DNA of 24,000 nt from positions 1 through 24,000 of the forward strand of contig JADFFQ010000041.1 of assembly GCA_022568135.1 (NCBI GenBank). Reading direction: 5' to 3'. Source of the stretch: Planctomycetota bacterium (lineage in GTDB: Bacteria; Planctomycetota; Phycisphaerae; Phycisphaerales; SM1A02). A program made the position numbers and the translations under genes. The notes below the pieces were generated by a model. That model made no database searches and had not been told where the DNA came from. It saw only the letters and a list, made by a program, of their open reading frames with translations. Every line of letters starts with the position of its first letter. The stretch's first letter is position 1. Shown in pieces: positions 1,120 to 24,000 of this stretch.

Positions 1120-1175
1120 GCGCGGGCCGAGCCGCGCGCGGATTTCCCAACATTTCCATCAGGAAGGTGGACACT

Positions 1176-9054: not shown

Positions 9055-9160
9055 CGCGCCTCACCAGGCTCACAATGATTCGGCTGGCAATCGCCCGGCC
9101 GAGCGTATCCACATAGTAGTGCGCTTTGCAAACGCCTGGCCGGCTTCGGGATCGCCTTGA

Positions 9161-9186
9161 TAGCCGCGGGTGCATACCCGCGGGCC
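9161..9186 (+). repeat. REP-like GC-rich hairpin, family member
   Basis: TAGCCGCGGGTGCATACCCGCGGGCC has an 8-bp stem CCGCGGGT / ACCCGCGG and loop GCAT. Its architecture matches 18189-18217 (TTAGCCCCGGGTGAATACACCCGGGGCC). It is intergenic, between the AsmA-like and PilZ genes. Confidence 0.55.
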
Positions 9187-9262
9187 GAGATAGCCGGGCG
9201 CAAAGAACCCACTCCCCCGCGACCTTCCGGTCGCCGCTAGGGCCACCATCGGTCGGGCCGAT

Positions 9263-9598
9263 TCACGCAGCTTGTCGCGCAGCGGCCCAGTCGGCGGAGC
9301 TCTTGACGAACTGCACGCCCAAGACCTCCCGATCGTCGGTGATCCAAAGCGAACGAACGATCCGGGCATCGAGCATTTCATTGGCCAGCACAACGGCCTG
9401 GCGGCGTTTCAGCGCGATGCCGAGGAACAACCGGTCGCCTGGTTGAAGATCCCCAGGCCCCTTGACCTCCAGCAATGCGCCGGCGGCGGATAGGTTCCAC
9501 GTGGTCCCGGACAGGTACTTGCCCGTCTTCGCAACGAACAGCTTGCAGGCACGCGCCATCTCAACCCGCTTGTGGGCTCGACGATCCCGTACAACCAT
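9263..9598 (-). CDS. PilZ domain protein (putative c-di-GMP receptor)
   Basis: 111 aa. An RxxxR-type motif lies at the N-terminus (RDRRAHKR) and a D/NxSxxG motif follows (WNLSAAGAL). Confidence 0.75.
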   Translation of the reverse strand: MVVRDRRAHKRVEMARACKLFVAKTGKYLSGTTWNLSAAGALLEVKGPGDLQPGDRLFLGIALKRRQAVVLANEMLDARIVRSLWITDDREVLGVQFVKSSADWAAARQAA

Positions 9599-9772
9599 GT
9601 GTGGACCTCAATGTGGCCGGCGTCGCTGCACAGCGGCTCCAGCCGGGTTATCGGCGATGTGCGACGATGACTTTGGCCCGGTGCGAATATGCACGGCTCC
9701 GCCCCAGGGCCATGGCCGATCTGGGGCTCGCAACCGGCCGATCCGCCCGGCCCTATCCTTTATTATTCTTCC

Positions 9773-10678
9773 ATGCTCGAATCCATCAGCGTCCAAGCGC
9801 CGGCCAAGCTGAACCTCGCCCTGTCGGTCGGCCCGACGGATCGTGACGGGATGCATCCGATTTGCAGTTGGATGGTGACGATCGATCTCTGCGACGAACT
9901 GGTGGTGGACCGGTTGCCGCAAGACCGGCTCTCCCGGTACGCGATCCTCTGGCACGAAGACGCCAAGCGCCCAAGCGATATCGACTGGCCGATCACCGGC
10001 GACCTGGCGGTGCGGGCTCATCTGGCCATGGAGAACCATGTGGGTCGGCGACTCCCGTTGCAATTGAAACTGCAAAAGCGCATTCCCGTGGGCGGAGGAC
10101 TCGGCGGCGGCTCTTCCAACGCGGCCGCTATGCTCCGGGCCGTCAACGAATTGTTCGACCTTTGCGTGTCCCTCGATGACATGCGGCAGATCAGTTGGGG
10201 GCTTGGGTCTGATGTGCCCTTCTTTGTAGCAGGCGGAAGCGCCATCGTCGAAGGGCTCGGCGAGCAGATCGAATCGCAAGAGACGGTGCCGAACCTGAGC
10301 GCCGTGATCGTCTTTCCCGAAGCCTCATGCCCGACCGGACGCGTCTACGACATGTTCGACAAGGTCGGGCCGGGACCGTTGCGCCCAGACGCGGTGCGGG
10401 CGCTGGCCGGCTTGAATGGGCCGTTGCGCCCGGATGCGATCTTCAACGATCTAGCGCCAGCGGCCATACGCGTCGCCCCCACGCTCCAGGAGCATCTGGC
10501 CCAACTGACCGCTCTGGCCGAACGTCCAGCTCATGTGGCCGGAAGCGGCTCGAGTATCTTCGTCCTCTGCGACGACCAGCTCCACGCCGAGGCGCTGGCG
10601 GACGCGGTCGAGCGCAGACTTGCATTGCCCGCCGTCGCGGTGAGGTCGCTTGCGGCCAGAGCCACGTCGGTTCTTTGA
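9773..10678 (+). CDS. ispE: 4-diphosphocytidyl-2-C-methyl-D-erythritol kinase
   Basis: ORF 9689..10678 trimmed to ATG 9773 (MLESISVQAPAKLNLALSV). The GHMP kinase motif PVGGGLGGGSSNAAA is present, and the C-terminus has GSGSSIF. Confidence 0.9.
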   Translation: MLESISVQAPAKLNLALSVGPTDRDGMHPICSWMVTIDLCDELVVDRLPQDRLSRYAILWHEDAKRPSDIDWPITGDLAVRAHLAMENHVGRRLPLQLKLQKRIPVGGGLGGGSSNAAAMLRAVNELFDLCVSLDDMRQISWGLGSDVPFFVAGGSAIVEGLGEQIESQETVPNLSAVIVFPEASCPTGRVYDMFDKVGPGPLRPDAVRALAGLNGPLRPDAIFNDLAPAAIRVAPTLQEHLAQLTALAERPAHVAGSGSSIFVLCDDQLHAEALADAVERRLALPAVAVRSLAARATSVL

Positions 10679-10943
10679 TTGGCCGATCAGGACGCGCGGC
10701 GGCCGGCTCAGCGCGATTCAGGACCCCATAGACGCGTGAGATTTGCCATTCGCTGCGGGCGAAGTTCACCGGCTTGCCGACCTGCAGCCAGTGCAGAGCC
10801 GACGCATGGGCCGCCTTGATCATCACCTCCGACTCATCCTCCGTCCGGTCCGCTTTCTCCAGCAGCGTCCAGGTGAAGTTGAACATCGCTTTACCACATT
10901 GCAGATGCTGCTGAGCGGTCAAGTTCATCGTGGTCTGGGCCAT
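10443..10943 (-). CDS. small helical hypothetical protein, probably truncated; ORF tail is antisense to ispE
   Basis: ATG 10943 is preceded by GGAGGA at 9-nt spacing. The first ~82 aa (…FNFTWTLLEKADRTEDESEVMIKAAHASALHWLQVGKPVNFARSEWQISRVYGVLNRAEPA) are protein-like and match my recollection of a conserved ~140-aa family. From about 10700 the frame becomes R/P-rich junk and overlaps ispE by 236 bp before a stop. Confidence 0.45.
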   Translation of the reverse strand: MAQTTMNLTAQQHLQCGKAMFNFTWTLLEKADRTEDESEVMIKAAHASALHWLQVGKPVNFARSEWQISRVYGVLNRAEPAAARPDRPIKEPTWLWPQATSPRRRAMQVCARPRPPAPRRGAGRRRGRRYSSRFRPHELDVRPERSVGPDAPGAWGRRVWPLALDR

Positions 10944-10980
10944 AGGCAATGATCCTCCGAGCCCACGTTACGATGCCCAG

Positions 10981-12423
10981 ATGAACGAAGAGACAACCTA
11001 TCACATGACGCCGGATCAGTTCCGCCGCCACGGCCGGGCGCTGGTCGATTGGATTGCCCGTTACATGGAGCAGATTGAGCAATACCCGGTGCTTTCGCAG
11101 GTCAAGCCGGGTGAGATTCGCCGCCGCTTGCCGGCTTCGCCGCCACAACAGGGCGAACCGTTCGAGATGATGATGCGCGACCTGGACGAGATCATTCTCC
11201 CGGGGATCACCCACTGGCAGTCGCCAAGCTTCTTCGGGTTCTTTCCCGCCAACGCCTCCGGCCCGTCGATCCTGGGAGAGCTGCTCTCAGCCGGTTTGGG
11301 TGTGCAGGGAATGCTGTGGGCCACCAGCCCGGCGTGCACTGAGCTGGAGACCCATGTGCTCGACTGGCTGGTTGACATGCTGGAGCTGCCGCAGCATTTC
11401 AAATCCACCACAGCCGGCGGAGGGGTGATCCAGGACACCGCCTCCAGCGCGACCCTTTGTGCGCTGCTCACAGCGCGCGAGAGGGCGACGGACTTCACGA
11501 GCAACCACAAGGGAGTCGATCGCCCGTTGATCGCCTACACCTCGAACCAGGCTCACTCCTCCGTCGAGAAGGCGGTCAAGATCGCCGGCCTGGGGCGCGA
11601 GAATCTGCGTTTGATCGAGGTGGATGAGCAGTACGCGATGCGGCCGGACGCTCTGGAGGCGGCGATCAAGAATGACCTGGCCAGCGGCCGAACACCGTGC
11701 TTCGTCTGCGCGACGGTCGGCACGACGTCGTCGAATGCAATCGATCCCCTGCGCCCCATCGGCGAGATATGTCAGCGGCATGGGGTCTGGCTGCACGTCG
11801 ATGCGGCCATGAGCGGCACGGCTGCGATCTGCCCCGAGTTCCGCTTTATCCACGACGGGCTCCAGTTCGCCGACAGCTACTGCTTCAACCCGCATAAGTG
11901 GATGTTCACCAACTTCGACTGCGATTGCTTCTGGGTCGCCGACCGAGCTGCACTCATCAACACGCTCAGTGTTCAGCCTGAGTATTTGAAGAACCCGGCC
12001 GGCGGTTCCGGGGGCGGAGAGGTGTTCGATTATCGCGACTGGCACATTCCGCTCGGCCGGCGGTTCCGGGCGTTGAAACTCTGGTTCGTCATCCGCCACT
12101 ACGGCATCGTTGGCCTGCAACATCACATCCGTGAGCACGTGAAGCTCGCCCAGGAGTTCGCATCGTGGGTCCAAGCGGATGAGCGCTTCGAGCTGGCGGT
12201 CGAGCCACCCTTGAACCTGGTCTGCTTCCGCCACCGCGGCGGGGATGAGGTCAACCAACAGATCATGGATCGCCTCAACTGCTCGGGCAAGCTGTATCTC
12301 ACCCACACCCGGCTCGATGAGAAGCTGACCCTGCGCTTCTGCGTCGGCCAGACACACACCCAGCGCCGCCACGTCCAGGCGGCGTGGGCGTCGATCCACG
12401 AATCAGCTGACGCGATCGCTTGA
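10981..12423 (+). CDS. aromatic-L-amino-acid decarboxylase (group II PLP-dependent decarboxylase)
   Basis: ORF 10930..12423 trimmed to ATG 10981 (alternative ATG 11005). Motifs present: FRRHGRALVDWIARY, ITHWQSPSFFGFFPAN, HVDAA, and the PLP-lysine motif FNPHKWMFTNFDC. Confidence 0.85.
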   Translation: MNEETTYHMTPDQFRRHGRALVDWIARYMEQIEQYPVLSQVKPGEIRRRLPASPPQQGEPFEMMMRDLDEIILPGITHWQSPSFFGFFPANASGPSILGELLSAGLGVQGMLWATSPACTELETHVLDWLVDMLELPQHFKSTTAGGGVIQDTASSATLCALLTARERATDFTSNHKGVDRPLIAYTSNQAHSSVEKAVKIAGLGRENLRLIEVDEQYAMRPDALEAAIKNDLASGRTPCFVCATVGTTSSNAIDPLRPIGEICQRHGVWLHVDAAMSGTAAICPEFRFIHDGLQFADSYCFNPHKWMFTNFDCDCFWVADRAALINTLSVQPEYLKNPAGGSGGGEVFDYRDWHIPLGRRFRALKLWFVIRHYGIVGLQHHIREHVKLAQEFASWVQADERFELAVEPPLNLVCFRHRGGDEVNQQIMDRLNCSGKLYLTHTRLDEKLTLRFCVGQTHTQRRHVQAAWASIHESADAIA

Positions 12424-12439
12424 TGATTCACCACCGAGG

Positions 12440-12532
12440 CACAGAGGACACTGAGAAGATATCAGGTAGGATTCCTACGAACAGGATGCTCTTCTACGTC
12501 TTTGTATTCTCTGTGTTCTCAGTGTCTCTGTG
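12440..12532. repeat. imperfect inverted repeat with a CACAGAG(G)ACACTGAGAA core
   Basis: CACAGAGGACACTGAGAA (12440-12457) pairs with TTCTCAGTGTCTCTGTG (12516-12532), the reverse complement with a 1-nt indel. The spacer is about 58 bp. It lies in the intergenic region between the decarboxylase and the YdeP-like gene. Confidence 0.6.
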
Positions 12533-12563
12533 GTTCATTCTTAAGAACGGGTGAGGACGCACG

Positions 12564-14744
12564 ATGCGACGGGTCAAAGCAGGTGGTGGTTGGCCGGCGA
12601 TCTGGTATGCGCTGGGCAAGGCTCGGCAATCAGGCGGGCTGTGGCGCATGTACAAGGCGCTGCGGTCCAAGAACACTTGCAAAACCTGCGCGCTGGGCAT
12701 GGGCGGGCAGCTCGGCGGAATGGTCAACGAGGCCGGGCGATTCCCGGAGGTCTGCAAGAAGTCGATCCAGGCGATGGCCGCGGACATGCAGGGTCGCATC
12801 CAGCCGCACTTCTTCGATGACTTCAGCCTTGAACAGTTGCGGGGCCTCTCATCACGCGAACTCGAAGCGGCCGGTCGACTCACCGAGCCGCTGTACGCCG
12901 GGCCGCTCGACAATCACTACCGCTGCATCACCTGGGACGATGCGCTGGACCGCATCGCCGCGAAGCTCAAGAAGACGGCGCCGGCGGAAACGTTCTTCTA
13001 CTTCAGCGGCCGGTCGTCGAACGAAGCGGGGTTCTTGCTGCAACTGTTCGCCCGGCTCTACGGCACCAACAACATCAACAACTGCTCGTTCTTCTGCCAC
13101 CAGGCCTCAGGCGTCGGTTTGACGACCGTCACCGGCTCCGGCACCGCGACGGTTGCGCTCGATGACATCCAACGTTGCGACCTGCTGTTCCTGATCGGGG
13201 CGAACCCCGCATCGAACCATCCCCGGCTGATGCGGACGATCGTCGAGCATCGTCGCCGCGGCGGGAAGGTGATCGTCGTCAACCCGCTGCGCGAGATCGG
13301 GCTGGTGCGGTTCAAGGTGCCATCCGACGTTCGCAGCCTGCTGTTGGGCTCGAAGATCGCAGACGTGTACGTTCAGCCGCACATCGGCGGCGACATCGCG
13401 TTCCTTGCAGCGGTCGCAAAGGCCGTGATCGAGCGCGGCGCGGTGGATGAGCAGTTCGTGACCAACCACACCAACGGCTGGGACGCGTTTCGCAGACACA
13501 TCGAATCGCTGGGGTGGGAAGAGCTTGTCAAGCGCTGCGGCGTAGGGCGCGAGACGATCGACCACGTCGCGGAGATCTATGCCGCCTCGCACAACGCAAT
13601 CTTCTGCTGGGCGATGGGGATCACCCATCACGAGCACGGCGTGGGGAACGTGCAGATGATCGCGAACCTGGCGATGACGCGCGGGATGCTCGGCCGGGCC
13701 GGCTGCGGGCTGCTGCCGTTGCGCGGGCACTCCAACGTGCAGGGCATGGGCTCGATGGGTGTGGTGCCGAAGCTCAAGCAAGCGGTCTTCGAGCGGCTGG
13801 AAAGCGCCTTCGGCGTGAAGCTGCCGACCGAAGTCGGGCTCGACACCCTCGGTAGCATTGCACAGGCCGACGAGGGCAAGGTTCGCTTTGCGTCCTGCCT
13901 GGGCGGGAACCTGTACGGGTCGAATCCCGATTCGGCCTTCGCTGCCCGTGCCATGAGCAAGATCGACATGGTGGCGTACATGTCCACGACGCTGAATACC
14001 GGCCATGCGCACGGCCGTGGGCGCGAAACGATCATCCTGCCCGTGCTTGCGCGAGACGAGGAGCCCCAGGCCACCACCCAGGAATCGATGTTCAACTACG
14101 TGCGGCTCAGCGACGGCGGCACCCCGCGCCACGTTGGCCCGCGAAGCGAAGTGCAAGTCATCGCCGACCTCGCTCAGCGCGTGCTCGGTGATTCCACCCC
14201 CATCGACTGGGAATCCATGCGCCGTCACGGCCGGATCCGCGAGGCGATCGCCGAAATCATCCCCGGCTACGAAAAGATCGGCGCGATCGACCAAACCAGG
14301 CAGGAGTTCCAGATCGACGGCCGAACGTTGCACGAGTCGAAGTTTCCCACCGACACCGGCCGGGCGAAGTTCCACGTGGTCGATCTGCCGGCGCTTGCGG
14401 GCACGGACAATGGCGAGCTTCGCCTGATGACCGTGCGCTCCGAAGGTCAGTTCAACACGGTGGTGTACGAGGAGCACGACATCTATCGCGGTCAGGACAG
14501 GCGGGACGTGGTGATGATGCACCCCGATGACATCGAGCGTTTCGGCTTTGAGGTGAATCAGCGCGTGACCGTCCGCAGCGAGACCGGGGCATTGGCGAAT
14601 CTGCTCGTGCGCTCAATCGACATCCGCGCCGGCAACGCGGTGATGTATTATCCCGAGGCCAACGCGATCATCCCCAAGCGGGCCGATCCGCGATCGCGCA
14701 CGCCGGCGTTCAAAAACACGGTGGTGAGGATCGAGCCGGGATAG
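12564..14744 (+). CDS. FdhF/YdeP-family molybdopterin oxidoreductase
   Basis: 726 aa. The N-terminus GGGWPAIWYALGKARQSGG...RSKNTCKTCALGMGGQLGGMVNEAGRFPEVCKKSIQAMAADMQ is characteristic of the YdeP family (from memory). Its length and C-terminal molybdopterin-binding-like region fit. Confidence 0.85.
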   Translation: MRRVKAGGGWPAIWYALGKARQSGGLWRMYKALRSKNTCKTCALGMGGQLGGMVNEAGRFPEVCKKSIQAMAADMQGRIQPHFFDDFSLEQLRGLSSRELEAAGRLTEPLYAGPLDNHYRCITWDDALDRIAAKLKKTAPAETFFYFSGRSSNEAGFLLQLFARLYGTNNINNCSFFCHQASGVGLTTVTGSGTATVALDDIQRCDLLFLIGANPASNHPRLMRTIVEHRRRGGKVIVVNPLREIGLVRFKVPSDVRSLLLGSKIADVYVQPHIGGDIAFLAAVAKAVIERGAVDEQFVTNHTNGWDAFRRHIESLGWEELVKRCGVGRETIDHVAEIYAASHNAIFCWAMGITHHEHGVGNVQMIANLAMTRGMLGRAGCGLLPLRGHSNVQGMGSMGVVPKLKQAVFERLESAFGVKLPTEVGLDTLGSIAQADEGKVRFASCLGGNLYGSNPDSAFAARAMSKIDMVAYMSTTLNTGHAHGRGRETIILPVLARDEEPQATTQESMFNYVRLSDGGTPRHVGPRSEVQVIADLAQRVLGDSTPIDWESMRRHGRIREAIAEIIPGYEKIGAIDQTRQEFQIDGRTLHESKFPTDTGRAKFHVVDLPALAGTDNGELRLMTVRSEGQFNTVVYEEHDIYRGQDRRDVVMMHPDDIERFGFEVNQRVTVRSETGALANLLVRSIDIRAGNAVMYYPEANAIIPKRADPRSRTPAFKNTVVRIEPG

Positions 14745-14792
14745 CGGTCAGCCCTCAGCTTTCAGCTGTCGGAGTCAGTATGCGAGCCGCGG

Positions 14793-15398
14793 CTATTGGG
14801 TCAGGGTGCGCTGAACAAGCACTTCGTACTCTTGCAGCGTGTTGATGTTGGTCAAATACCTTGACCACGCCTGCGGAGCCTCGATCGCTTCGATCTCAAT
14901 CGACCCCATCAGATGAGACACGGCGCGCTGACCGGCATCGAGCAGCGCTCGTACCGCACGCAATACCTCCGCCGAGATTCGCGCAGGCAATGGTTCGGTT
15001 TCTGAACGACCATCAATCCGCAGGACCGTCGCCTGGGCGGACGAAGGCACAGTCAGCGCCTTGAGCAACTTGCTTGTCACCAGCGGCACGTCACAAGGAC
15101 AGACGAGGTATTGCGTATCCAGTCCGCTGGCCAGCAGTGCCTCAATGCCGCCAAGCGGTCCGTGGCGGGATCGCAGATCGTCGATATGCTGAAGTGTCGC
15201 CAGCGCGTCGTCTGGCCCGACGACAACCACCTGTTGGCACACCTGGGCCATGACATCGGCGACGGCTTCGATCATCGGGCGACCATCCGGCAGCGGCAGC
15301 GCGTGCTTCGGCCGGCCCATCCGCAGGCTTCGGCCGCCGGCCAGCACGGCGCCGGTGTGCGGCCACCGCCCGCTATCAACGCTGCTGGGGGACCCCAT
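14793..15398 (-). CDS. mobA: molybdenum cofactor guanylyltransferase
   Basis: ORF 14793..15686 trimmed to ATG 15398. The upstream 96 codons are an out-of-frame read of the MOSC gene. The motif VLAGGRSLRMGRPKHALPL (LAGGxSxRMG) is present. It is about 201 aa. Confidence 0.8.
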   Translation of the reverse strand: MGSPSSVDSGRWPHTGAVLAGGRSLRMGRPKHALPLPDGRPMIEAVADVMAQVCQQVVVVGPDDALATLQHIDDLRSRHGPLGGIEALLASGLDTQYLVCPCDVPLVTSKLLKALTVPSSAQATVLRIDGRSETEPLPARISAEVLRAVRALLDAGQRAVSHLMGSIEIEAIEAPQAWSRYLTNINTLQEYEVLVQRTLTQ

Positions 15399-15846
15399 GA
15401 TGCACTTCAATCGTCTCGCCGGAGCGGATCTCGCCGGTCGTGATGATCCTGGCGTAGCAGCCGCATCGACCTGTGATGGCGCCCTGCAACCGGGGACTGA
15501 TGGCGTCCAGCACGTAGCATGGCTTACGCACCTTGGTGATTTCCAGCTCCACACCGCCGTTGAAGCACAGCCGATCACTGATGTGGAGTGCATCAACATT
15601 GAGGCCGCGAATGGTGAGGTTTTCGCCGGTTGCGCCGGGATAGACATCGAACCCCTCCCGCCGCAGATCGTCGAGATCTTCGACATCGATCAAGCTGATC
15701 GCCTGCATCGGGGTGTTGTGCTTGGCGTGATCGTGCCCGTCACCGACGAGGCCGGCTGAGGTCACCTCGCCGATCTCGATTTGGTGCTTGGGGACACCCC
15801 CGGGTGAGATGTTGACCGCGACCACGATGGGAGATGATTCACTCAT
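15376..15846 (-). CDS. MOSC domain-containing protein (YiiM-like)
   Basis: ORF 15376..15900 trimmed to ATG 15846 (MSESSPIVVAVNIS). Motifs present: GLVGDGHDH, PGATGENLTIRGL, and the conserved Cys context KVRKPCYVLD. Its 3' end overlaps the mobA start by 23 nt. Confidence 0.75.
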   Translation of the reverse strand: MSESSPIVVAVNISPGGVPKHQIEIGEVTSAGLVGDGHDHAKHNTPMQAISLIDVEDLDDLRREGFDVYPGATGENLTIRGLNVDALHISDRLCFNGGVELEITKVRKPCYVLDAISPRLQGAITGRCGCYARIITTGEIRSGETIEVHHGVPQQR

Positions 15847-15920
15847 GCCGGAACATGATACCCTGTTTCGCCGGCTCACCTCGCCCCGCCGCGAGAACAT
15901 TGAACGATGACAACGACGCG

Positions 15921-16709
15921 ATGACCGACACTCTCCAAGGCAAGAACGCGCTGGTCTGCGGCAGCACGCAGGGCATCGGCCGGGCCTGCGCGATGGAGCT
16001 GGCCAGGCTCGGGGCCGAGGTCACCTTGATGGCCCGCAATGAAGCCGGGCTCAATAATGTCCGCCAAGAGTTGCCGACCGACCACGGCCAGTCGCACGGT
16101 TCGATCGTCGCCGACTTTTCCGATTGGGAAGTCGTACGCGGCAAGGCGAACCGTCACATTGAGGCGAACGGGCCGATCCACATCCTGCTGAACAACACCG
16201 GCGGGCCCCCGGCCGGACCTGTCTTCGAGGCTCCGTCCGACCAGCTCATCGCTGCCTTCACCCAACACCTCCTGTGCAACCATGTGCTCGTGCAGACCCT
16301 CGCGCCCGGCATGCGCGACGCCGGCTACGGGCGCATCGTCAACATCATCTCCACGTCGGTGATCCAGACGATCAAGGGGCTCGGCGTGTCCAACGTCATC
16401 CGCGGCGCGGTGGCGAATTGGGCCCGCACCCTCGCCGGTGAACTCGGCCCGTTCGGCATCACCGTCAATAATATCTTGCCCGGCTACACCCGCACCGCTC
16501 GACTCGACAGCCTCATCCAAGGCAGGGCGAATCGCGCCGGCTCGACAGTCCAGGAGATCGAAGGTCAAATGATCGCCAACGTGCCGCTGGGTCGCTTCGC
16601 CGAGCCGCAAGAGATCGCTGCGGTAGCCGGTTTTCTCGCCTCGCCCTCGGCAGCCTACATCAACGGCGTCAACCTGCCCGTCGATGGCGGACGCCTCGCA
16701 GGGCAGTAA
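15921..16709 (+). CDS. atypical SDR-family protein (BKR-like; canonical YxxxK absent)
   Basis: ORF 15834..16709 trimmed to ATG 15921. It has a Rossmann motif ALVCGSTQGIGRA and NNTGG. Anchoring on GITVN against E. coli FabG (NYAAAKAG...GITVN, from memory) places SNVIR where YAAAK is expected. Confidence 0.75.
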   Translation: MTDTLQGKNALVCGSTQGIGRACAMELARLGAEVTLMARNEAGLNNVRQELPTDHGQSHGSIVADFSDWEVVRGKANRHIEANGPIHILLNNTGGPPAGPVFEAPSDQLIAAFTQHLLCNHVLVQTLAPGMRDAGYGRIVNIISTSVIQTIKGLGVSNVIRGAVANWARTLAGELGPFGITVNNILPGYTRTARLDSLIQGRANRAGSTVQEIEGQMIANVPLGRFAEPQEIAAVAGFLASPSAAYINGVNLPVDGGRLAGQ

Positions 16710-16738
16710 CAGATCACCCCAGAACCTCGCGTCGAGAC

Positions 16739-18202
16739 ATGTTGACGATCCGCAACTTCATTGACGGGCAGCTCGTAGAGCCAGCGGGCAGGGCGTACTT
16801 CGACGACATCGACCCGGCCACGGGCGAGGTTTGCGCGCAGGTCCCCGATAGCGACCAGCGCGATGTCGAGGCGGCCGTGGACTCCGCTAAGCGAGCGTTC
16901 GGAGCGTGGTCGGCAACCCCCGCAGCGGAGCGCAGTCGAATCCTGCTTCGGATCGCGGACCTGATCGAACGCGACCTCGACGAACTCGCCCGCAGCGAGT
17001 GCATCGACACCGGCAAGCCGCTTAGCGTAGCAAGATCGGTTGACATCCCGCGCGCCGTGAAAAACTTCCGCTTCTTCGCCACAGCGATCCTGCACACGAA
17101 ATCCGAAACGCATCAGACCGATACCGACGCGCTCAACGTGACCCTGCGCCAGCCGCGCGGCGTAGCCGGGCTGATCTCGCCGTGGAACCTGCCGCTGTAT
17201 CTATTCACGTGGAAGGTCGCCCCGGCGATCGCCACCGGCAACACCGCGGTGGGCAAGCCCTCGGAGCTCACCCCCACGACCGCCTATCGACTGGCTGCAC
17301 TGTGTCAGGAGGCGGGTCTGCCGGCGGGCGTGCTCAATATCGTGCACGGCCTCGGGGCCAAGGCAGGCGCCGCCATCGTCCGCCACGGCGATGTCCCGAC
17401 GATCTCCTTCACCGGGGGAACCGAGACCGGCTCGCAGATCGCCCGCACCGCCGCTCCAATGTTCAAGCGTCTGGCGCTGGAGTGCGGCGGCAAGAACCCG
17501 ACGATCGTCTTCGCTGACGCTGATCTCGACGAAGCGCTTCCGGTGAGTGTGCAATCCGCGTTCGCCAACCAGGGAGAAACGTGTCTGTGCGGCTCCCGGA
17601 TCTTCGTCGAGCGTTCGGTCTACGACCAGTTCGTCGATCGCTTCGTCGAGCGCAGCGGCGCGCTGCGCGTGGGCGACCCGCTCCAGGAAAAAACCGACCT
17701 TGGGGCGCTGATCTCCAAAGAGCATCTGGCCAAGGTCGAATCGTATGTTTCGTTGGCTCAGGATGAGGGCGGCACGATCCGCTGCGGCGGGGCCCCCCCG
17801 GCGGCGATCAACGAGCGGTGCCGCGGCGGGTTCTTCCTCCAGCCGACGGTCATCACCGGGCTAGACGCGCAGTGCCGGACGAACCGCGAGGAAATCTTCG
17901 GCCCGGTGGTCACGATCATGCCGTTTGACGATGAGGAGCAGGTCATCGGCTTCGCCAACGCCACGCAATATGGGCTGTCGGCCTCGCTGTGGACGGGCAA
18001 TCTCGATCGGGCTCATCGCGTCGCCGGGCAGATTCAGTCCGGGACGGTGTGGGTGAACTGCTGGCTGCTGCGCGATCTGCGGGTACCCTTCGGCGGAATG
18101 AAGCACAGCGGCCTCGGCCGAGAAGGCGGCGAGGAAGCACTGCGCTTCTTCACCGAACCAAAGAACGTGTGTATCAAGCTGAGATCACTTAGCCCCGGGT
18201 GA
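16739..18202 (+). CDS. aldehyde dehydrogenase, 2-aminomuconate-6-semialdehyde dehydrogenase-like (ALDH8 / AmnC / NbaE type)
   Basis: 487 aa. ALDH motifs are present: ISPWNLPL, GKPSELTP, LECGGKNP (catalytic Cys region) and EEIFGPV. The specific substrate is inferred only from neighbours (ACMSD, a RidA-type deaminase, kynurenine genes). Confidence 0.8.
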   Translation: MLTIRNFIDGQLVEPAGRAYFDDIDPATGEVCAQVPDSDQRDVEAAVDSAKRAFGAWSATPAAERSRILLRIADLIERDLDELARSECIDTGKPLSVARSVDIPRAVKNFRFFATAILHTKSETHQTDTDALNVTLRQPRGVAGLISPWNLPLYLFTWKVAPAIATGNTAVGKPSELTPTTAYRLAALCQEAGLPAGVLNIVHGLGAKAGAAIVRHGDVPTISFTGGTETGSQIARTAAPMFKRLALECGGKNPTIVFADADLDEALPVSVQSAFANQGETCLCGSRIFVERSVYDQFVDRFVERSGALRVGDPLQEKTDLGALISKEHLAKVESYVSLAQDEGGTIRCGGAPPAAINERCRGGFFLQPTVITGLDAQCRTNREEIFGPVVTIMPFDDEEQVIGFANATQYGLSASLWTGNLDRAHRVAGQIQSGTVWVNCWLLRDLRVPFGGMKHSGLGREGGEEALRFFTEPKNVCIKLRSLSPG

Positions 18203-18217
18203 ATACACCCGGGGCCC
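18189..18217 (+). repeat. REP-like GC-rich hairpin, family member; contains the ALDH stop codon
   Basis: TTAGCCCCGGGTGAATACACCCGGGGCCC has a 10-bp stem GCCCCGGGTG / CACCCGGGGC (18192-18215) and loop AATA. The TGA at 18200-18202 inside the left arm terminates the ALDH. Confidence 0.7.
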
Positions 18218-18241
18218 ACGCGCGAATTGGAATTGAACGAC

Positions 18242-18682
18242 ATGTCCAGCAACGACCCGGGCCTCATGAGCCCCCGCGCCCCGGAACCCGTCGGCGCCTA
18301 TCCGCACGCCAGGCGCGTCGGCAACCTGTTGTATCTCTCCGGCGTCGGCCCCCGGAAACGCGGCCGCAAAGACATCCCCGGCGTGACGCTTGATACTCAG
18401 GGCAATGCGACTTCATATGACATTGAAGCGCAGTGCCGGTCGTGCTTCGACAACGTGCGGGCCATTCTGGAAGACGCCGGCTCGGGCTGGGACAAGATCG
18501 TCGATGTGCTGGTGTTCCTCACAAATATGAAGAAGGACTTCGCGCGGTTCAACACGCTGTATGCGGCATATTTCGCAGGCGACGGCAAGCCGAACCCGAC
18601 GCGTACCACGATCGAGGTCGGCTGCCTGCCCACGCCGATCGCGGTGGAGTTGAAAGTCATCGCGACGATCAAGGCAGACTAG
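18242..18682 (+). CDS. RidA/YjgF-family deaminase (2-aminomuconate deaminase-like by context)
   Basis: ORF 18227 (TTG) trimmed to ATG 18242. It has a RidA-like core: PEPVGAYPHARRVGNLLYLSGVGP ... VDVLVFLTNMKDF...RTTIEVGCLP. Confidence 0.75.
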   Translation: MSSNDPGLMSPRAPEPVGAYPHARRVGNLLYLSGVGPRKRGRKDIPGVTLDTQGNATSYDIEAQCRSCFDNVRAILEDAGSGWDKIVDVLVFLTNMKKDFARFNTLYAAYFAGDGKPNPTRTTIEVGCLPTPIAVELKVIATIKAD

Positions 18683-18742
18683 ATCGAAGCCGCAGCAATA
18701 TGATGCCCCATTGATTGCGCAAACCACGTCGAAGACTAGGTT

Positions 18743-19165
18743 GTGAACATTGGCGGTCCGGCATTCTGGGTTACCTTCGCGCTCTTTGTGTTGAGCCCGT
18801 TCGGCGCCTTCACATTGTCCTGGGCGATCCGGCGGCAATACTTCGCCACCAAACGAAACATTGTGATCTTGGCCGCCTACTACATTGTTTTTGTTGGCGG
18901 ATACCTCCCGACGTTCGTGTTTGGAGAAGGTGCTAATTCAGCTGTAGTTTTGCTTCAAACCGCTGGGTGTCTCTCTATTACCGCCGGACCATTTGTCGCA
19001 CTTTACTTCCTTGTTTCGATGATCTTCTTCACTGAGAGGCCCACCTACCCGCCTTGTCCCGGATGTGGATACGACCTGACCGGAAACACATCCGGTCGAT
19101 GCCCGGAATGTGGCAGGGAACTCCGTCCGCAACACGCCAAGCACCTTGAATCAAAGGATCGCTAG
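18743..19165 (+). CDS. small multi-pass membrane protein with C-terminal Cys4 zinc-ribbon
   Basis: GTG start, 140 aa, 3-4 hydrophobic helices. The C-terminus is CPGCGYDLTGNTSGRCPECG. The local GC is lower (a sampled 60-nt line at 18901 is 45% GC). It is a hypothetical protein. Confidence 0.55.
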   Translation: MNIGGPAFWVTFALFVLSPFGAFTLSWAIRRQYFATKRNIVILAAYYIVFVGGYLPTFVFGEGANSAVVLLQTAGCLSITAGPFVALYFLVSMIFFTERPTYPPCPGCGYDLTGNTSGRCPECGRELRPQHAKHLESKDR

Positions 19166-19800
19166 CACATACCCTTCTTGCTAGTCAATGGTCGCAACAC
19201 CGCCCGCACCGGCGAGGCGTCGAAGCCGACCAACGGCAGGGGTAGGGCGATCAGTTCGTACATCCCCTGCGGCACATCCTTGAGCATCAAGCCTTCCAGA
19301 ATCGCCATGTCGTGGGCAAGAACACGCTGGTGGGCGGGCAGGTCCTTGGATTCGAACAGGTCCACGCTGGGGGTATCGATGCCGATGAGCTTGACGCCTC
19401 GCTCGTGCAGATGATCGACAAGCTCCGGGCTCAGGGCCGCGAAGTCGTCGTTCCATTTCCGGGGGTCGGGAAACGTGCCGGTCGCAAGAAGCAGCCGGTC
19501 AGCTTGAACGTTCGCTGGGACATCTTCCGGTTCAATGCGGGCACCGCGTTTGACATCCAGGTGAATGACCTGGCACGGACCGACATACAACTCCAGGCTT
19601 CGTTGCTCGATTGATGGCGCATCGCGGCCGTAGTGGCTCGGGGCATCGGCATGAGCGCCCAGATGCACGGTCGCGTGCAGGGTGGAGAGCGTAAGGTTGT
19701 CACCGCGCTTCATGTCCAGCAGCACCTCGCGGCTCGGCGGAGTGTCGCCCGGCCAAACCTTCAAGTCCGGCGAAATCGGCGGCGTGATGTCGTAGATCAT
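19162..19800 (-). CDS. kynB: kynurenine formamidase (cyclase family)
   Basis: ORF 19162..19965 trimmed to ATG 19800 (MIYDITPPISPDLKVWPGD). The metal motif VHLGAHADAPSH is present. There is an ATGA 4-nt start/stop overlap with kmo. Confidence 0.85.
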   Translation of the reverse strand: MIYDITPPISPDLKVWPGDTPPSREVLLDMKRGDNLTLSTLHATVHLGAHADAPSHYGRDAPSIEQRSLELYVGPCQVIHLDVKRGARIEPEDVPANVQADRLLLATGTFPDPRKWNDDFAALSPELVDHLHERGVKLIGIDTPSVDLFESKDLPAHQRVLAHDMAILEGLMLKDVPQGMYELIALPLPLVGFDASPVRAVLRPLTSKKGMC

Positions 19801-21146
19801 CGCATGTCGAGCCCCCACAGCAGGCCAAGGATCACCATCAACGTGGCCACGGCTACCGTCCACCCGATCACGGCGAGGATTTGGTTCTGCCGGGCCGCTT
19901 TCCGCCTCGCTTGCGCGTAGGGGATCCGCGAGAAGGTCACCATGTTGTATAACGGCGTGTACCACCGCCCACAGAGCCTGTGAAGCATACCCTCGGCGCG
20001 TTTGCGCAGCCGGAACGCCGGCGAGGCCACGCGATCTCGCATCTCAATGAAGTTGCCGATCGCCAGGTCGGCGATGGCGTCGGCATTGACCTTGCGGCCA
20101 CGGAAATATCGCTCGAACGCCACGTGGCGATCCGACTTGGACTGCTCGAGACATTCAACGAGAGCGACGCAATCCTCGAACGCCGCGTTCATCCCCTGGC
20201 CGTAGAACGGTACAACGGCGTGGGCGGCGTCGCCGACGAGCACAACCTTATCCTCGTAGAACCACGGCGAACAGCGCACGGTCACCAGCGAACTCGTGGG
20301 GTTGCGCCGGTAATCCTCCGCCAGGCTGGGCATGAGTTCCACGGCGTCGCGGAAATTCGCCTGGAAGAAACGCTGAATCTCATCCTCACTCTTCACCGCC
20401 TTGAAGCTGCCAGGACCCACAAACGGCCAAAAGAGAGTACACGTGAATGAGCGGTCGCGGTTGGGAAGCGCAATCATCATGGAGCCGCCCCTCGGCCAGA
20501 TGTGCAGCGCGTGCGGCTCCATGGCGAAGTCACCGCCACGCGTCGGCGGAACCGTCAGCTCCTTATAGCCGTGCCCGAGGTACGTCTGGCTGTAATCGAA
20601 TTGATCGACCAACTGCATCCGCGCGCGCACGGCCGAGAACGCGCCGTCACAACCGATGACGACGTCTGCATCGACGCGAGTCGTTTCATTGTCAGCGGTG
20701 TTGAGCAACGTAACGGAGGGCTTGTCAATGTCAACGTCGATGCAGCGATGCTCGAAGTGATACCGAACGTTGGGGTGCTTCCGGGCGCCGTCGAGTAGCG
20801 TCACGTTCAGCCCACCCCGCGACACGGAGTTGATCGCATCGTTGGGGTTCTTGCTGTATGGCTGGAAGGTGAGCCGGCCGGCGGGTGAATGAATCATTCG
20901 CCCGCGCATCGGGATGGCGTCGTTGAGCACCGCCTCGGCCAGACCGGCTCGTTGCAGGGCGTGGATCCCTCGGACCGACAGCGCCAGGTTGATCGATCGC
21001 CCGCCGGTCAACCCCCTGGCCCGAGGGTCCGGCCGGCGCTCGTACACTCCCACGCTATAGCCGGCCTCGCCGAGCATGCACGCCAGCAGCGCCCCGGCCA
21101 AACCGGCGCCGACGATCACTATCCGCTGCCGCTCAGTCTCGACCAC
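19797..21146 (-). CDS. kmo: kynurenine 3-monooxygenase with C-terminal hydrophobic tail
   Basis: GTG start. The FAD motif IVIVGAGLAGALLA is present, along with GRSINLALSVRG and LVGDAAHAVVPFYGQGMN. The C-terminal stretch ILAVIGWTVAVATLMVILGLLWGL looks like a TM helix. Confidence 0.9.
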   Translation of the reverse strand: MVETERQRIVIVGAGLAGALLACMLGEAGYSVGVYERRPDPRARGLTGGRSINLALSVRGIHALQRAGLAEAVLNDAIPMRGRMIHSPAGRLTFQPYSKNPNDAINSVSRGGLNVTLLDGARKHPNVRYHFEHRCIDVDIDKPSVTLLNTADNETTRVDADVVIGCDGAFSAVRARMQLVDQFDYSQTYLGHGYKELTVPPTRGGDFAMEPHALHIWPRGGSMMIALPNRDRSFTCTLFWPFVGPGSFKAVKSEDEIQRFFQANFRDAVELMPSLAEDYRRNPTSSLVTVRCSPWFYEDKVVLVGDAAHAVVPFYGQGMNAAFEDCVALVECLEQSKSDRHVAFERYFRGRKVNADAIADLAIGNFIEMRDRVASPAFRLRKRAEGMLHRLCGRWYTPLYNMVTFSRIPYAQARRKAARQNQILAVIGWTVAVATLMVILGLLWGLDMR

Positions 21147-21174
21147 GCAACAAGTCTACCGTCAGCGCAAGCAT

Positions 21175-21201
21175 TTAGCCCCGGGTGATTCACCCGGTGC
21201 C
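21175..21201 (+). repeat. REP-like GC-rich hairpin, family member
   Basis: TTAGCCCCGGGTGATTCACCCGGTGCC shares the 14-mer TTAGCCCCGGGTGA with 18189-18202. It has an imperfect palindrome CCGGGTGA / TCACCCGG. It lies in the 82-bp gap between kynU and kmo. Confidence 0.65.
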
Positions 21202-21228
21202 AAACGAGGTTCGGATCAGAACTACCGA

Positions 21229-22530
21229 TCACAGATTTGCCGTCAGGATCTGCGTAAACCGCCACACCTCGTGGAAGGTGTTGTACAGCGGAACGGGCGC
21301 GGCGCGGATGATGTTCGGCTCGCGGAAGTCGCAGACGGCGCCCTCGGCCAACACGGCCTCGTGGCGGTGCCTGGGCTGATCGTGCACAAGAATCGAGAGC
21401 TGGCAGCCTTGGGCATCCGGGTCGCTAGGCGTGATGATCTCGAACCGATCGTTCGACGAGCGCTGCAGCAGAAAGCGCAGGTAGCCGGTGAGCTGCCCGG
21501 ATTTGTGCCGCAGCGCGTCCATGCCGACTTCGTCGAACATCTCCAGCGAGGCCTTCAGCGGCGCCATCGAAAGAATGGGCGGGTTGCTGACCTGCCAACC
21601 GGCCGCGCCAGGCTGCGGAACAAAATCGCGCTGAAGATGCATCTGGAAACGAGTTTCGGGATCATCGCCCCACCAGCCGGCCAAGCGGGGCAGGTCGGGG
21701 GCGTTGCCGTGCTTCTCGTGGACGAAGCACCCGGCAATGGCGCCGGGCCCGGCGTTGAGATACTTGTACGAACACCAGACCGCGAAATCGACCTCCCAAT
21801 CGTGCAGGTGAAGCTGGACGTTGCCGGCTGCGTGGGCCAGTTGCAGGCCGACCGCGCAGCCGTGATTCCGGGCGGCGGCGGCGATTCGAGCCATGTCGAA
21901 CACCTGCCCGGTATGGAAGTTCACGCCGGGCAATAACACCAGCGCGATCTGCTCGCCCTGTTCATCGAGGAAGCCTTCGATGTCCTCGGTGCGAACGGTG
22001 TGCTCACCCTCGCGGGGTTTGATCTGCACCAGCGTGTCGTTGGGATCAAGCCCGCGGCTGCGCAAGTGTGTCCTCACCGCATACAGGTCTGACGGGAAGG
22101 CCGGGTACTCCATCAGGATCTTGTGGCGCTTGGGCGTCGGGCGGAAGAAACTGACCAACATCAAATGCAGATTGATGGTCAGACTGTTCATCATGACTAC
22201 TTCGCCGGCCCCCGGAAGCGCCCCAACGAGCCGCTCGCCGCTTTCGCCGAACACCTCGTGATAGGAGTACCACGGCGTGCGAGCCTTGCGGTGGGCATCA
22301 ACAGCAAGCTCGGCCCAGTCATCGAGCTCCTGCTCAACCATCGCCCGGACGGTCTTGGGTTGCAGCCCCAATGAGTTGCCGGCGAAGTAGATGACCGGCT
22401 CGCCGTTGGGCCGGCGAGGAATGTGAAACCGATCGCGATACTCGCGCAGCGAGTCGGTCTCATCGAGATGGCGGGCAAACTCTTGCGACGGCTCGAAGGC
22501 GGTCGTCGCGCCGGACTCCGTGCGGCTCAT
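21229..22530 (-). CDS. kynU: kynureninase
   Basis: 433 aa. Motifs present: IYFAGNSLGLQPK, TPWYSYHE, and the PLP-lysine context WCSYKYLNAGPG. Confidence 0.9.
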   Translation of the reverse strand: MSRTESGATTAFEPSQEFARHLDETDSLREYRDRFHIPRRPNGEPVIYFAGNSLGLQPKTVRAMVEQELDDWAELAVDAHRKARTPWYSYHEVFGESGERLVGALPGAGEVVMMNSLTINLHLMLVSFFRPTPKRHKILMEYPAFPSDLYAVRTHLRSRGLDPNDTLVQIKPREGEHTVRTEDIEGFLDEQGEQIALVLLPGVNFHTGQVFDMARIAAAARNHGCAVGLQLAHAAGNVQLHLHDWEVDFAVWCSYKYLNAGPGAIAGCFVHEKHGNAPDLPRLAGWWGDDPETRFQMHLQRDFVPQPGAAGWQVSNPPILSMAPLKASLEMFDEVGMDALRHKSGQLTGYLRFLLQRSSNDRFEIITPSDPDAQGCQLSILVHDQPRHRHEAVLAEGAVCDFREPNIIRAAPVPLYNTFHEVWRFTQILTANL

Positions 22531-22557
22531 GCGCCCATCGTAGCGGCAACGACGCAG

Positions 22558-22582
22558 TTAGCCCCCCCCAGGCCGGGAGCTA
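22558..22582 (-). repeat. degenerate REP-like element forming the ACMSD 3' end
   Basis: The minus strand reads TAGCTCCCGGCCTGGGGGGGGCTAA. Compare 23703-23726, ATAGCCCCCGGCTCTGCCGGGGGG. It encodes the last ACMSD codons SSRPGGG plus TAA. Confidence 0.35.
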
Positions 22583-23649
22583 TGTGAGTGCGCTGCGGCA
22601 GCACGCCCCGATGACGCCGAGGACGTGAAGACCTGCGGGCCCAGGCCGAGGAACTCCAGAGCCGTTCCCGCCAGCAATCGCTCTCGGGCTTGAGGCGACA
22701 GCTCGTCGATCGACTCGATGAGCTTGCCCGGCTGCGATTCGCCCAAGGGAAACGGATAGTCCGAGCCGAGCGCAACGCGATCGGGCCCCATCAGATTGAC
22801 CAGATAACGCAACGCATCAGCATCGTGCACCAGCGAATCGAGGTAAATGCGATCCAGATAAGCGCGCGGGTTGCCCACCTGGTTTGGGTTCACCAGATCG
22901 GGGCGAGCGTGGTAGCCATGTTCGATTCGCCCGATGGTGAATGCAAACGCGCCGCCGCCGTGGGCAAAGGCGATCCGCAGCTTGGGCAGGCGCTCCAGCA
23001 CGCCGCCGAAGATTACCGAGCAGATGGCCAGGGCGGTCTCGACGGGCATCCCCACCAGCCACGGCATCCAGTACTTGCTCATCCGTTCACGCCCGAGCAT
23101 CTCCCAAGGGTGGACGAAGACCGCAGCCCCGAGCTCGGCCGCCGCCTCGAATACTCCAAACAACGCCGGCTCATCGAGGTTCCGCCCGTTGACGTGGCTG
23201 CCGATCTGGACACCTGCCAGGCCCAGCTCACCGACGCATCGTTGGAGCTCCTTGACGGCGAGGCCCGGATCCTGCATGGGGATCGTGCCCAGCCCGACAA
23301 AGCGATCCGGGTACTGCGCACAGACGCCGGCGATGTGATCGTTGAGCATCCGCGAAAGGTCCATCGCATCGGCCGGCTTCGCCCAATAGCTGAACATTAC
23401 CGGCACGGTGGAGAGCACCTGCACGTGGACACCACATTGATCACAGTCCGCAATGCGCTTCTGCGGGTCCCAGCAGTTGGCCTGAATGTCGCGGAAGCAC
23501 TTGTCATCGACCATCATGTGGGCGCAGTCGCATTGATAGTGATCGAGTCGCACCCATCCGCCGTAGCCGTACTTCTCCCTCAGGTCCGGCCAGTTCTGCG
23601 GCAGGATGTGGGTGTGCAGGTCGATTTTGAGGGGGCCCAGTTCCGACAC
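22558..23649 (-). CDS. 2-amino-3-carboxymuconate-6-semialdehyde decarboxylase (ACMSD, amidohydrolase-2 family)
   Basis: The metal-binding start [16 protein letters not shown] is present, along with AFAHGGGAF and [11 protein letters not shown]. The start is placed at GTG 23649. The annotated TTG 23820 would add 57 Arg-rich residues that read through the two REP-like hairpins. Start uncertain. Confidence 0.8.
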
Positions 23650-23702
23650 GTTCCACAGCGTACCAGATGCATCGGCGCCGGCGCGGTGTTGGCTGCCCTG
23701 CC

Positions 23703-23726
23703 ATAGCCCCCGGCTCTGCCGGGGGG
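23703..23726 (+). repeat. REP-like hairpin, left member of an inverted pair
   Basis: ATAGCCCCCGGCTCTGCCGGGGGG has a 7-bp stem CCCCCGG / CCGGGGG and loop CTCTG. Confidence 0.65.
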
Positions 23727-23760
23727 TTCGTCCGCAACGGGCGTAAATCTTTGACTCGAT

Positions 23761-23784
23761 CCCCGGGCAGAGCCCGGGGCTAAG
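23761..23784 (-). repeat. REP-like hairpin, right member of an inverted pair
   Basis: The minus strand reads CTTAGCCCCGGGCTCTGCCCGGGG. It has a 7-bp stem and the same TTAGCCCCGGG core as 18189 and 21175. It is inverted relative to 23703-23726 with a 34-bp spacer. Confidence 0.65.
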
Positions 23785-23823
23785 GGAGGCGCGGACGCGG
23801 CGGCTCGCTCGCTGACTCAACCC

Positions 23824-24000
23824 TCACGCGCGCTCGATCACCACCTCCGGCTCGAAGATGATGCGCTTGACCGGCGTGGGCTTTGGAACTTGCGTACCGC
23901 ATTTCTTACAGGTGCTCAGCCGCTCGTCGGCCCAGAACTCCTCCATCGACTGCGCAAAGTGCTCGACGATGTCGCCACAGTCGAACTCCTTGTCGTAGAC
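23824..24000 (-). CDS. 3-hydroxyanthranilate 3,4-dioxygenase, C-terminal fragment (gene continues beyond the window)
   Basis: My own translation of the minus strand gives VYDKEFDCGDIVEHFAQSMEEFWADERLSTCKKCGTQVPKPTPVKRIIFEPEVVIERA*, with the stop TGA at 23826-23824. The FW/YA.E..R.C..CG tail resembles the rubredoxin-like C-terminus of bacterial HAO (from memory). The position directly upstream of ACMSD fits. It is not in the supplied ORF track because it is truncated. Confidence 0.55.
   Translation of the reverse strand, partial: VYDKEFDCGDIVEHFAQSMEEFWADERLSTCKKCGTQVPKPTPVKRIIFEPEVVIERA

Follow-up and report, generated by a model that had tools for sequence, protein, structure and literature searches.

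The stretch of DNA analyzed here (the window) spans 24,000 nt, positions 1 to 24000 of contig C19 of a Planctomycetota metagenome-assembled genome (MAG), G000 (3.35 Mb, 62.6% G+C, 87 contigs, 93% complete), which was compared with three sister species, G001, G002, and G003. On its plus strand, the window carries genes for DnaK (933–3086), an aldehyde dehydrogenase (16739–18202), and a RidA-like protein (18227–18682). The dehydrogenase and RidA-like genes are followed, on the minus strand, by genes encoding a cyclase-family, kynurenine formamidase-like protein (19162–19965), a FAD monooxygenase resembling kynurenine 3-monooxygenase (KMO; 19797–21146), kynureninase (21229–22530), and an ACMSD-like amidohydrolase (22558 to about 23650), with a further, unnamed minus-strand gene ending at 23824. 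Scattered in this window are short G+C-rich hairpins, six of which an initial annotation had likened to repetitive extragenic palindromic (REP) elements, or to bacterial interspersed mosaic elements, and proposed as substrates of a REP-associated tyrosine transposase (RAYT). We conclude that these hairpins are very probably REP-type elements, and that each subfamily would be spread by one small Y1 HUH nuclease/transposase acting in trans.

A re-reading of the window found all six hairpins where they had been placed. The first, TAGCCGCGGGTGCATACCCGCGGG (9161–9186, plus strand), lies in the spacer between a PilZ-domain gene (9263–9598, minus strand) and a gene encoding a 609-aa protein (7225–9054, minus strand). 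The shared core that had been ascribed to all copies extends here to the TAG foot, while the stem (CCGCGGGT...) belongs to a different family. This TAG-headed REP (TAG-CCGCGGGTGCATACCCGCGG) has its own relatives in the genome, five copies of CCGCGGGTATGCACCCGCGG-CTA plus related CCGCGGGTGGTAACCCGCGG copies. The second hairpin, TTAGCCCCGGGTGAATACACCCGGGGCC (18189–18217, plus strand), sits between the aldehyde dehydrogenase and RidA-like genes and is a REP of subfamily C (TTAG-CCCCGGGTGAATACACCCGGGG-CC; the subfamilies are described below). It codes for the final dehydrogenase codons (SLSPG), and the TGA stop of that gene is inside the loop. A slightly decayed subfamily C copy, TTAGCCCCGGGTGATTCACCCGGTGCC (21175–21201, plus strand; TTAG-CCCCGGGTGATTCACCCGGTG-CC), separates the KMO-like and kynureninase genes. 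The last two hairpins belong to subfamily A and form the halves of a heads-outward, REPIN-like doublet (23704–23783) in the spacer between the ACMSD-like gene and the stop of the gene upstream of it: TAGCCCCCGGCTCTGCCGGGGGG on the left (23704–23726, plus strand; TAG-CCCCCGGCTCTGCCGGGGG-G) and TTAGCCCCGGGCTCTGCCCGGGG on the right (23760–23783, minus strand; TTAG-CCCCGGGCTCTGCCCGGGG). The remaining element (22558–22582) is a decayed double-headed REP (TTAGCCCCCCCCAGGCCGGGAGCTA) which, read on the minus strand, provides the last codons and the TAA stop of the ACMSD-like gene. The description of all copies as lying between genes or at gene ends needs to be qualified for this element, which is within the 3' end of a gene, and the number of copies in or adjoining the kynurenine cluster is five of the six rather than four.

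When folded as single-stranded DNA and compared with shuffled sequences, five copies are stable, at −8.6 to −14.7 kcal/mol with z scores of −2.9 to −5.6. The individual values are −11.5 kcal/mol (z = −3.5) for the copy at 9161, −14.7 (z = −5.6) at 18189, −8.6 (z = −3.4) at 21175, −11.5 (z = −3.5) at 23704, and −10.8 (z = −2.9) at 23760. The doublet as a whole folds as a single long hairpin (−29.7 kcal/mol, z = −4.4). The decayed copy at 22558 does not fold as single-stranded DNA (z = −0.55). An Rfam scan of the window matched no family.

The exact 11-mer TTAGCCCCGGG occurs three times in the window, as had been reported, and only nine times in the whole genome. Searching the window for the 10-mer with one mismatch allowed gave 7 matches versus 3.0 expected, a number reached by 5 of 100 shuffles. 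Since the count within the window is barely above chance, the test was moved to the whole genome, in which TAGCCCC[GC]GG occurs at 92 sites (with about 98 TAGCCCC heads overall). About 70 of these sites continue into a loop of 4 to 8 nt and a complementary arm. The bare 10-mer is weakly informative even at this scale, with 29 occurrences of the reversed word and hence a mere two- to threefold enrichment. This modest figure, and the crowding of five copies within 5.6 kb of one pathway locus, are what speaks for palindromes that arise by chance or from the composition of a genome rich in G+C, or for operators of a regulator specific to the kynurenine cluster. The signal is decided at the level of structure, however. 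The 22-nt pattern of subfamily A has 40 matches in G000 versus 0 for its reversed control, and 64 of the 81 perfect CCCCSGG-stem hairpins (79%) carry a TAG on one side only. The single variable stem position covaries in a compensatory manner, pairing in 69 of 70 copies (45 C·G, 22 G·C, 1 T·A, 1 T·G, and 1 mismatch). Moreover, copies of TAGCCCC[GC]GG are spread over more than 40 contigs beside unrelated genes, and the same 22-mer recurs in many other Planctomycetota genomes. These genome-wide counts refute both chance and a pathway-specific operator, which we regard as extremely improbable explanations.

The elements have a common build, with an unpaired (A/T)TAG foot, a G+C stem of about 7 to 10 bp, and a loop of 3 to 8 nt. 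They are thus short (20 to 40 bp) G+C-rich stem-loop palindromes present in many dispersed copies per genome, like REPs. Four subfamilies differ by their loop: A (CTCYG, about 35 to 40 copies), B (CTTG, 15 copies), C (TGAATACA-like, about 4 to 7 copies), and D (CTGTTAG or CGGTTCG, few copies). The two loop subtypes that the initial annotation had told apart correspond to A (GGC-TCY-GCC) and C (GGTGAATACACC), which have different cognate genes. Elements occur as single copies or as inverted doublets with their feet outward; at least six such doublets are found in the genome, spaced 76 to 83 nt, which is the inverted-dimer organization of REPINs. The foot extends well beyond this core family. 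Among the 2671 perfect hairpins of G000 (stem of at least 7 bp, loop of 3 to 9 nt), TAG is the most frequent 3-nt flank, at 3.5% versus a genome frequency of 0.38%. The 241 TAG-headed perfect hairpins come from at least 15 stem families, including the CCGCGGGT family of the copy at 9161.

Placement relative to coding sequence, a check that the initial annotation had set, was evaluated on gene calls of our own making, based on dicodons (2716 genes, with 84.5% of the DNA coding). While non-coding DNA makes up 15.5% of the genome, 84% of the 241 TAG-headed hairpins are intergenic. The intergenic copies lie in convergent (35%), co-directional (56%), and divergent (9%) spacers, compared with 17%, 56%, and 27% of intergenic bases, respectively. 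The elements are therefore extragenic and, with convergent spacers enriched and divergent ones depleted, preferentially downstream of genes, as is typical of REPs. The distance to the 3' end of a gene pointing at the element has a median of 68 nt and is 50 nt or less for 101 of the 241 hairpins. A called stop codon is contained in 19 hairpins. The TAG foot is not a by-product of stop codons, since a same-strand called stop coincides with only 16 of the 241 heads. Miniature inverted-repeat transposable elements were also considered and rejected: the unit is a 20-nt self-complementary hairpin, with neither terminal inverted repeats nor target duplications.

This proximity to 3' ends, and the enrichment in convergent spacers, would also be expected if the hairpins were primarily transcription terminators or 3' mRNA-stabilizing stem-loops, held at gene ends by selection rather than spread by a nuclease. 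REPs elsewhere do stabilize upstream mRNA (PMC3733652), and GTTCTTC comes next after many of the subfamily A copies. That tail, however, is the start of the doublet spacer beside the subfamily A Y1 gene on contig C84 (see below), and a scan of window positions 8500–24000 for terminators with a T tract returned no REP copy among the terminator-like sites. In co-directional spacers the orientation bias is weak (66 hairpins in the same orientation versus 45 in the opposite one). Independent selection at separate gene ends would not yield 40 nearly identical copies of a 22-mer that agree in both unpaired foot and loop, nor would it put hairpins on both sides of Y1 genes. We consider a primary role of this kind unlikely, although termination or stabilization may be a secondary effect of the elements.

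The search for a RAYT suggested by the initial annotation initially came up short, the 12 genes matching Pfam Y1_Tnp in G000 including none that is bracketed on both sides by TAGCCCC hairpins; some of the 12 have hairpins of other families, with a GTAAAG foot, at their flanks. The early reading that there is no cognate RAYT was discarded as a failure of sensitivity of the Pfam scan, because tblastn with divergent relatives recovered the cognates. The lead genes were small Y1 genes lying within CCCC(N)GGC(R)(R)AGCC(N)GGGG hairpin arrays, one on an unrelated planctomycete contig (locus L056) and one in genome G016 (locus L148). L056 is the only one of 118 loci with the 22-mer in other genomes that a Y1 gene adjoins, as expected for dispersed repeats. 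With these lead genes as queries, tblastn and phmmer identified about 30 Y1-like open reading frames (ORFs) in G000, most of which have their own hairpin on both sides. Four of them have hairpins of a TAGCCCCSGG subfamily on either side, one gene for each subfamily: C84:7805–8275 (A), C43:46528–47076 (B), C9:26169–26600 (C), and C84:13070–13510 (D). The same hairpin thus flanks a Y1 HUH gene for four subfamilies and four genes in G000, and flanked orthologues or relatives were found in G002, G003, G016, G033, G020, and at L056. The subfamily A gene lies between heads-outward doublets, and its stop codon is a TAG foot. It is present in single copy, with syntenic orthologues in G002 and G003 that are 91 to 92% identical, have flanks 94 to 96% identical, and are surrounded by the same inverted heads-outward doublets. 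This evidence of single-copy, vertical inheritance concerns the subfamily A cognate only. In G033, G016, and G020, the relatives are accompanied by TAG- or CTA-footed hairpins with shifted stems and loops. Close orthologues of the subfamily A gene were found only in genomes with subfamily A elements, with two exceptions: G033, whose orthologue goes with a different loop type, and G001 (86% complete), which has elements and in which no orthologue was found. The foot type tracks the protein clade, the class-ii Y1 genes (on C56, C64, C35, C75, and C2) having flanking hairpins with a GTAAAG foot.

Other repeats were seen around Y1 genes. Directly beside the subfamily D gene, a tandem array (C84:12913–12988, locus L171) repeats a 15-nt unit (TAGCCCCCGGCCAAT) five to six times, the unit being equivalent to the foot and left arm of a REP without the right arm. 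Class-ii Y1 genes are flanked by the repeats CCGCGACCAYYGGTCGCGG and CCGGCGATGSCATCGCCGG, whose foot is CTTTAC/GTAAAG. In addition, GTCCCGACAAGTCGGGAC (14 copies) flanks C56:7002–7949, and AAAGCCCAGGGAAAGCTTTCCCTGGGCTTT (11 copies) flanks a Y1-like ORF at C51:63914–64528. At C13:47100–48600, a 40-nt tandem array of CGCCGCGTGGSCGCGGCG units surrounds a broken Y1 gene, and the 12-mer ATCCTCGACCTG occurs 77 times in G000. A 237-aa RAYT-like gene (C49:4898–5611, locus L001), which scores 71 bits on NF047646, just below the cut-off, is bracketed, in place of GC hairpins, by inverted copies of GGGACAGTCACCTAT and by GGATATTCGGG or GATTTGGCCCC units in tandem.

As for the Y1 proteins, the alignment of 12 sequences, including a canonical RAYT (L167), shows that His86, His88, Trp119, and Tyr140 are invariant, i.e., the HUH motif and the catalytic Tyr are conserved. 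L167 is a bona fide RAYT of the genus, with 188 bits on NF047646 and flanking TAG-GGTCCGC hairpins. The clade of the cognate proteins is distinguished by an invariant N-terminal motif, TTYGTWLxGDxRG, and by the Tyr motif YV(E/R/Q)RH(N/A). Public databases hold more than 300 homologues, one of them from Algisphaera agarilytica, and many are named "REP element-mobilizing transposase RayT" by JGI.

The elements differ between close relatives. The 22-nt pattern, found 40 times in G000, is matched 8, 30, and 35 times in the sister species, so that subfamily A is abundant throughout the genus. A single further genus of the family has 7 matches, and the remaining 35 relatives searched have 0 to 1. 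The exact 22-mer is also present in many other Planctomycetota (Lacipirellula, Pirellulales, and Phycisphaeraceae MAGs), in one Thermoanaerobaculia MAG, and in one Acidobacteriota MAG. Although the kynurenine cluster is 93 to 95% identical to that of the sister species, the hairpin content of its junctions differs. The copy at 18189 is found in G000 only; the corresponding position in the three sister species holds roughly 71 nt of unrelated sequence, in which there is a different, imperfect TAG-headed hairpin. The copy at 21175 is shared by G000 and G001, while G003 has about 570 nt of unrelated sequence and G002 the same 574-nt spacing. The unrelated stretch in G003 lies between the KMO-like and kynureninase genes at a locus (L016) orthologous to window positions 21116–21241. 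The element that is decayed at 22558 in G000 is perfect in G001, G002, and G003, as TTAGCCCCCGGCAGGCCGGGGGCTA or a ...CATG... variant. All four species of the genus have kept the doublet of 23704–23783 at orthologous positions, with point changes. At the junction of the RidA-like and cyclase genes, the three sister species have a subfamily B REP (CCCCCGGCAAGCCGGGGG-CTA), and G000 has an insert of about 490 nt with lower G+C. This insert (18670–19188), absent from the three sister species, contains a 140-aa ORF (18743–19165) with predicted membrane helices and a C-terminal CPGCG...CPECG knuckle, for which no Pfam match was found. At the boundary of the cyclase and KMO-like genes, the counterpart of the roughly 100 nt at 19792–19894 is some 875 nt long in G002 and G003, which may reflect a deletion in G000 or an insertion in the others.

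Several observations weigh against reading these hairpins as REPs with their own RAYT-like enzymes. The genome is a fragmented and incomplete MAG, and the positional statistics rely on home-made gene calls. The base preceding TAG in the core family is A in 49%, T in 38%, and G in 8% of cases (87% A/T), with A at 47%, T at 24%, and G at 18% over all families. TAG is kept, but the foot is WTAG and not the GTAG of the REP superfamily. On the protein side, the cognate clade stays below the curated cut-off of the RAYT family: the proteins at L148, L166, and L056 score 25 to 34 bits on NF047646, versus a cut-off of 80. The subfamily A cognate reaches only 13.5 bits on Pfam Y1_Tnp (PF01797; cut-off 23), its single-sequence search against the Protein Data Bank (PDB) returned no match, and the subfamily C cognate does not match Y1_Tnp. 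A profile built from the clade alone matches IS200/IS605 transposases weakly (ISDra2 TnpA, PDB 2XM3, E = 5e-4) and does not match E. coli TnpAREP (PDB 4ER8), which is matched at 2e-15 once L167 is added to the profile. Finally, the hairpins around the Y1 genes of L056 and L148 are in direct rather than inverted orientation, which recalls the ends of IS200/IS605 elements.

These profile matches and direct orientations, as well as the presence of about 30 Y1-like ORFs in one genome, are points in favor of placing the hairpins near the ends of active IS200/IS605-type insertion sequences, and of miniatures derived from them, rather than in a domesticated REP/RAYT system. There is, however, a single gene copy per subfamily, and the subfamily A gene is syntenic and as similar between sister species as the surrounding DNA. 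The 20-nt hairpins are scattered alone by the dozens, instead of forming units of insertion sequence length with distinct left and right ends, and the doublets around the C84 gene and its orthologues in G002 and G003 are inverted, heads outward. An origin as insertion sequence ends is thus very unlikely.

Together, the copy number, hairpin structure, and intergenic bias bear out the REP-like character proposed in the initial annotation, and its suggestion of a RAYT is supported by the flanking of a separate Y1 HUH gene by each TAGCCCCSGG subfamily. Covariation of the stem, flanked Y1 genes in several genomes, conservation of the HUH and Tyr residues, and turnover between species all fit REP-type elements that depend on Y1 enzymes. 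The foot and hairpin, exposed in single-stranded DNA, would be recognized and cleaved by a small Y1 HUH nuclease/transposase; that the Y1 proteins bind and cut such hairpins is suggested by analogy with TnpAREP and IS608. There would be one Y1 gene per hairpin subfamily, embedded between copies of its own hairpin, and its enzyme would seed, copy, or excise elements in trans. Action in trans would explain why so many copies are nearly identical, why stem changes are compensatory, and why elements are gained, lost, or replaced at the same junctions in sister species. Elements would survive chiefly in the DNA immediately 3' of genes, a position in which they are of little harm, and probably also form stable 3' RNA hairpins; some copies contribute the C-terminal tail and the stop codon of a gene. 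Odd hairpins, gene tails and stops made of repeats, and junctions that differ between sister species would all go back to a single, ordinary source, namely REP-type elements together with their nucleases.

More tentatively, the roughly 30 Y1 HUH genes might represent a radiation that co-diversified with its hairpins, with the TAG-foot clade (TTYGTWLxGDxRG, W[TA], YVxRHN) as a separate class of REPtron nuclease that existing classifications lack. Such a class would stand between IS200 transposases and RAYTs and read a WTAG instead of a GTAG guide. This is a possibility that we consider doubtful, but if true, it would offer a natural panel of matched enzyme/hairpin pairs for understanding how Y1 enzymes read their guide sequence. 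For annotators, the practical implication is that a clade of RAYT-like genes is missed by the Pfam and NCBIfam models. For the REP/RAYT field, a compact genome with four closely related subfamilies, each with its own enzyme gene, is a handy set for studying recognition specificity.

The closest known system is the GTAG-tagged REP superfamily, including REPINs, with its RAYTs (Nunvar 2010, PMC2817692; Bertels and Rainey 2011; Di Nocera 2013, PMC3733652). In the definition of Di Nocera et al., a REP carries a GTAG or CGTC tag at its end. These authors reported tagged REPs in Planctomycetes, R. baltica being among the genomes in which REP families coexist; head-to-head (HH) dimers are the usual dimer type, stems vary in a compensatory manner, and the elements are positioned downstream of genes (PMC3733652). 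Our hairpins resemble GTAG REPs in being G+C hairpins of 20 to 30 nt, with an unpaired foot ending in TAG and tens to hundreds of extragenic copies, mostly downstream of genes. They likewise comprise several families per genome, form heads-outward (HH) dimers, have compensatory stems, and include copies around a single-copy Y1 HUH gene. In contrast, the first base of the foot is A or T here and G there, and the proteins differ from RAYTs by having W[TA] instead of WQ, YVxRHN instead of YIxxNP, and the N-terminal TTYGTWLxGDxRG motif. The presence of about 30 Y1-like ORFs in a 3.35-Mb genome also sets this system apart from GTAG REP/RAYT systems, such a number of enzyme/hairpin pairs being unusual for one small genome.

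Another relevant group is class 3 of TnpAY1, which is described as "REPtron-like," rare, found mainly in Planctomycetes and Acidobacteria, and flanked by atypical high-copy hairpins (Quentin et al. 2018, PMC6006769). Our proteins are similarly small Y1 proteins of Planctomycetes with a W[TA] motif. However, the defining marks of class 3 are a Y----Q motif (YV[VI][AENY]EQ) and a CnGA foot (PMC6006769), and on both counts the system described here differs, with YVxRHN as its Tyr motif and (A/T)TAG as its foot. With IS200/IS605 elements such as IS608 and ISDra2, it shares a Y1 HUH enzyme which, by analogy, would recognize hairpins in single-stranded DNA, and a direct hairpin orientation at some loci. 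Unlike these elements, it has no multi-copy full-length form: the hairpins spread alone or as doublets, while the gene stays fixed and syntenic between species. The hairpins of the window are thus a known and ordinary sort of selfish or domesticated bacterial DNA, found here in a lineage that has been little studied, and are distinguished by a WTAG foot and a divergent clade of cognate Y1 proteins.

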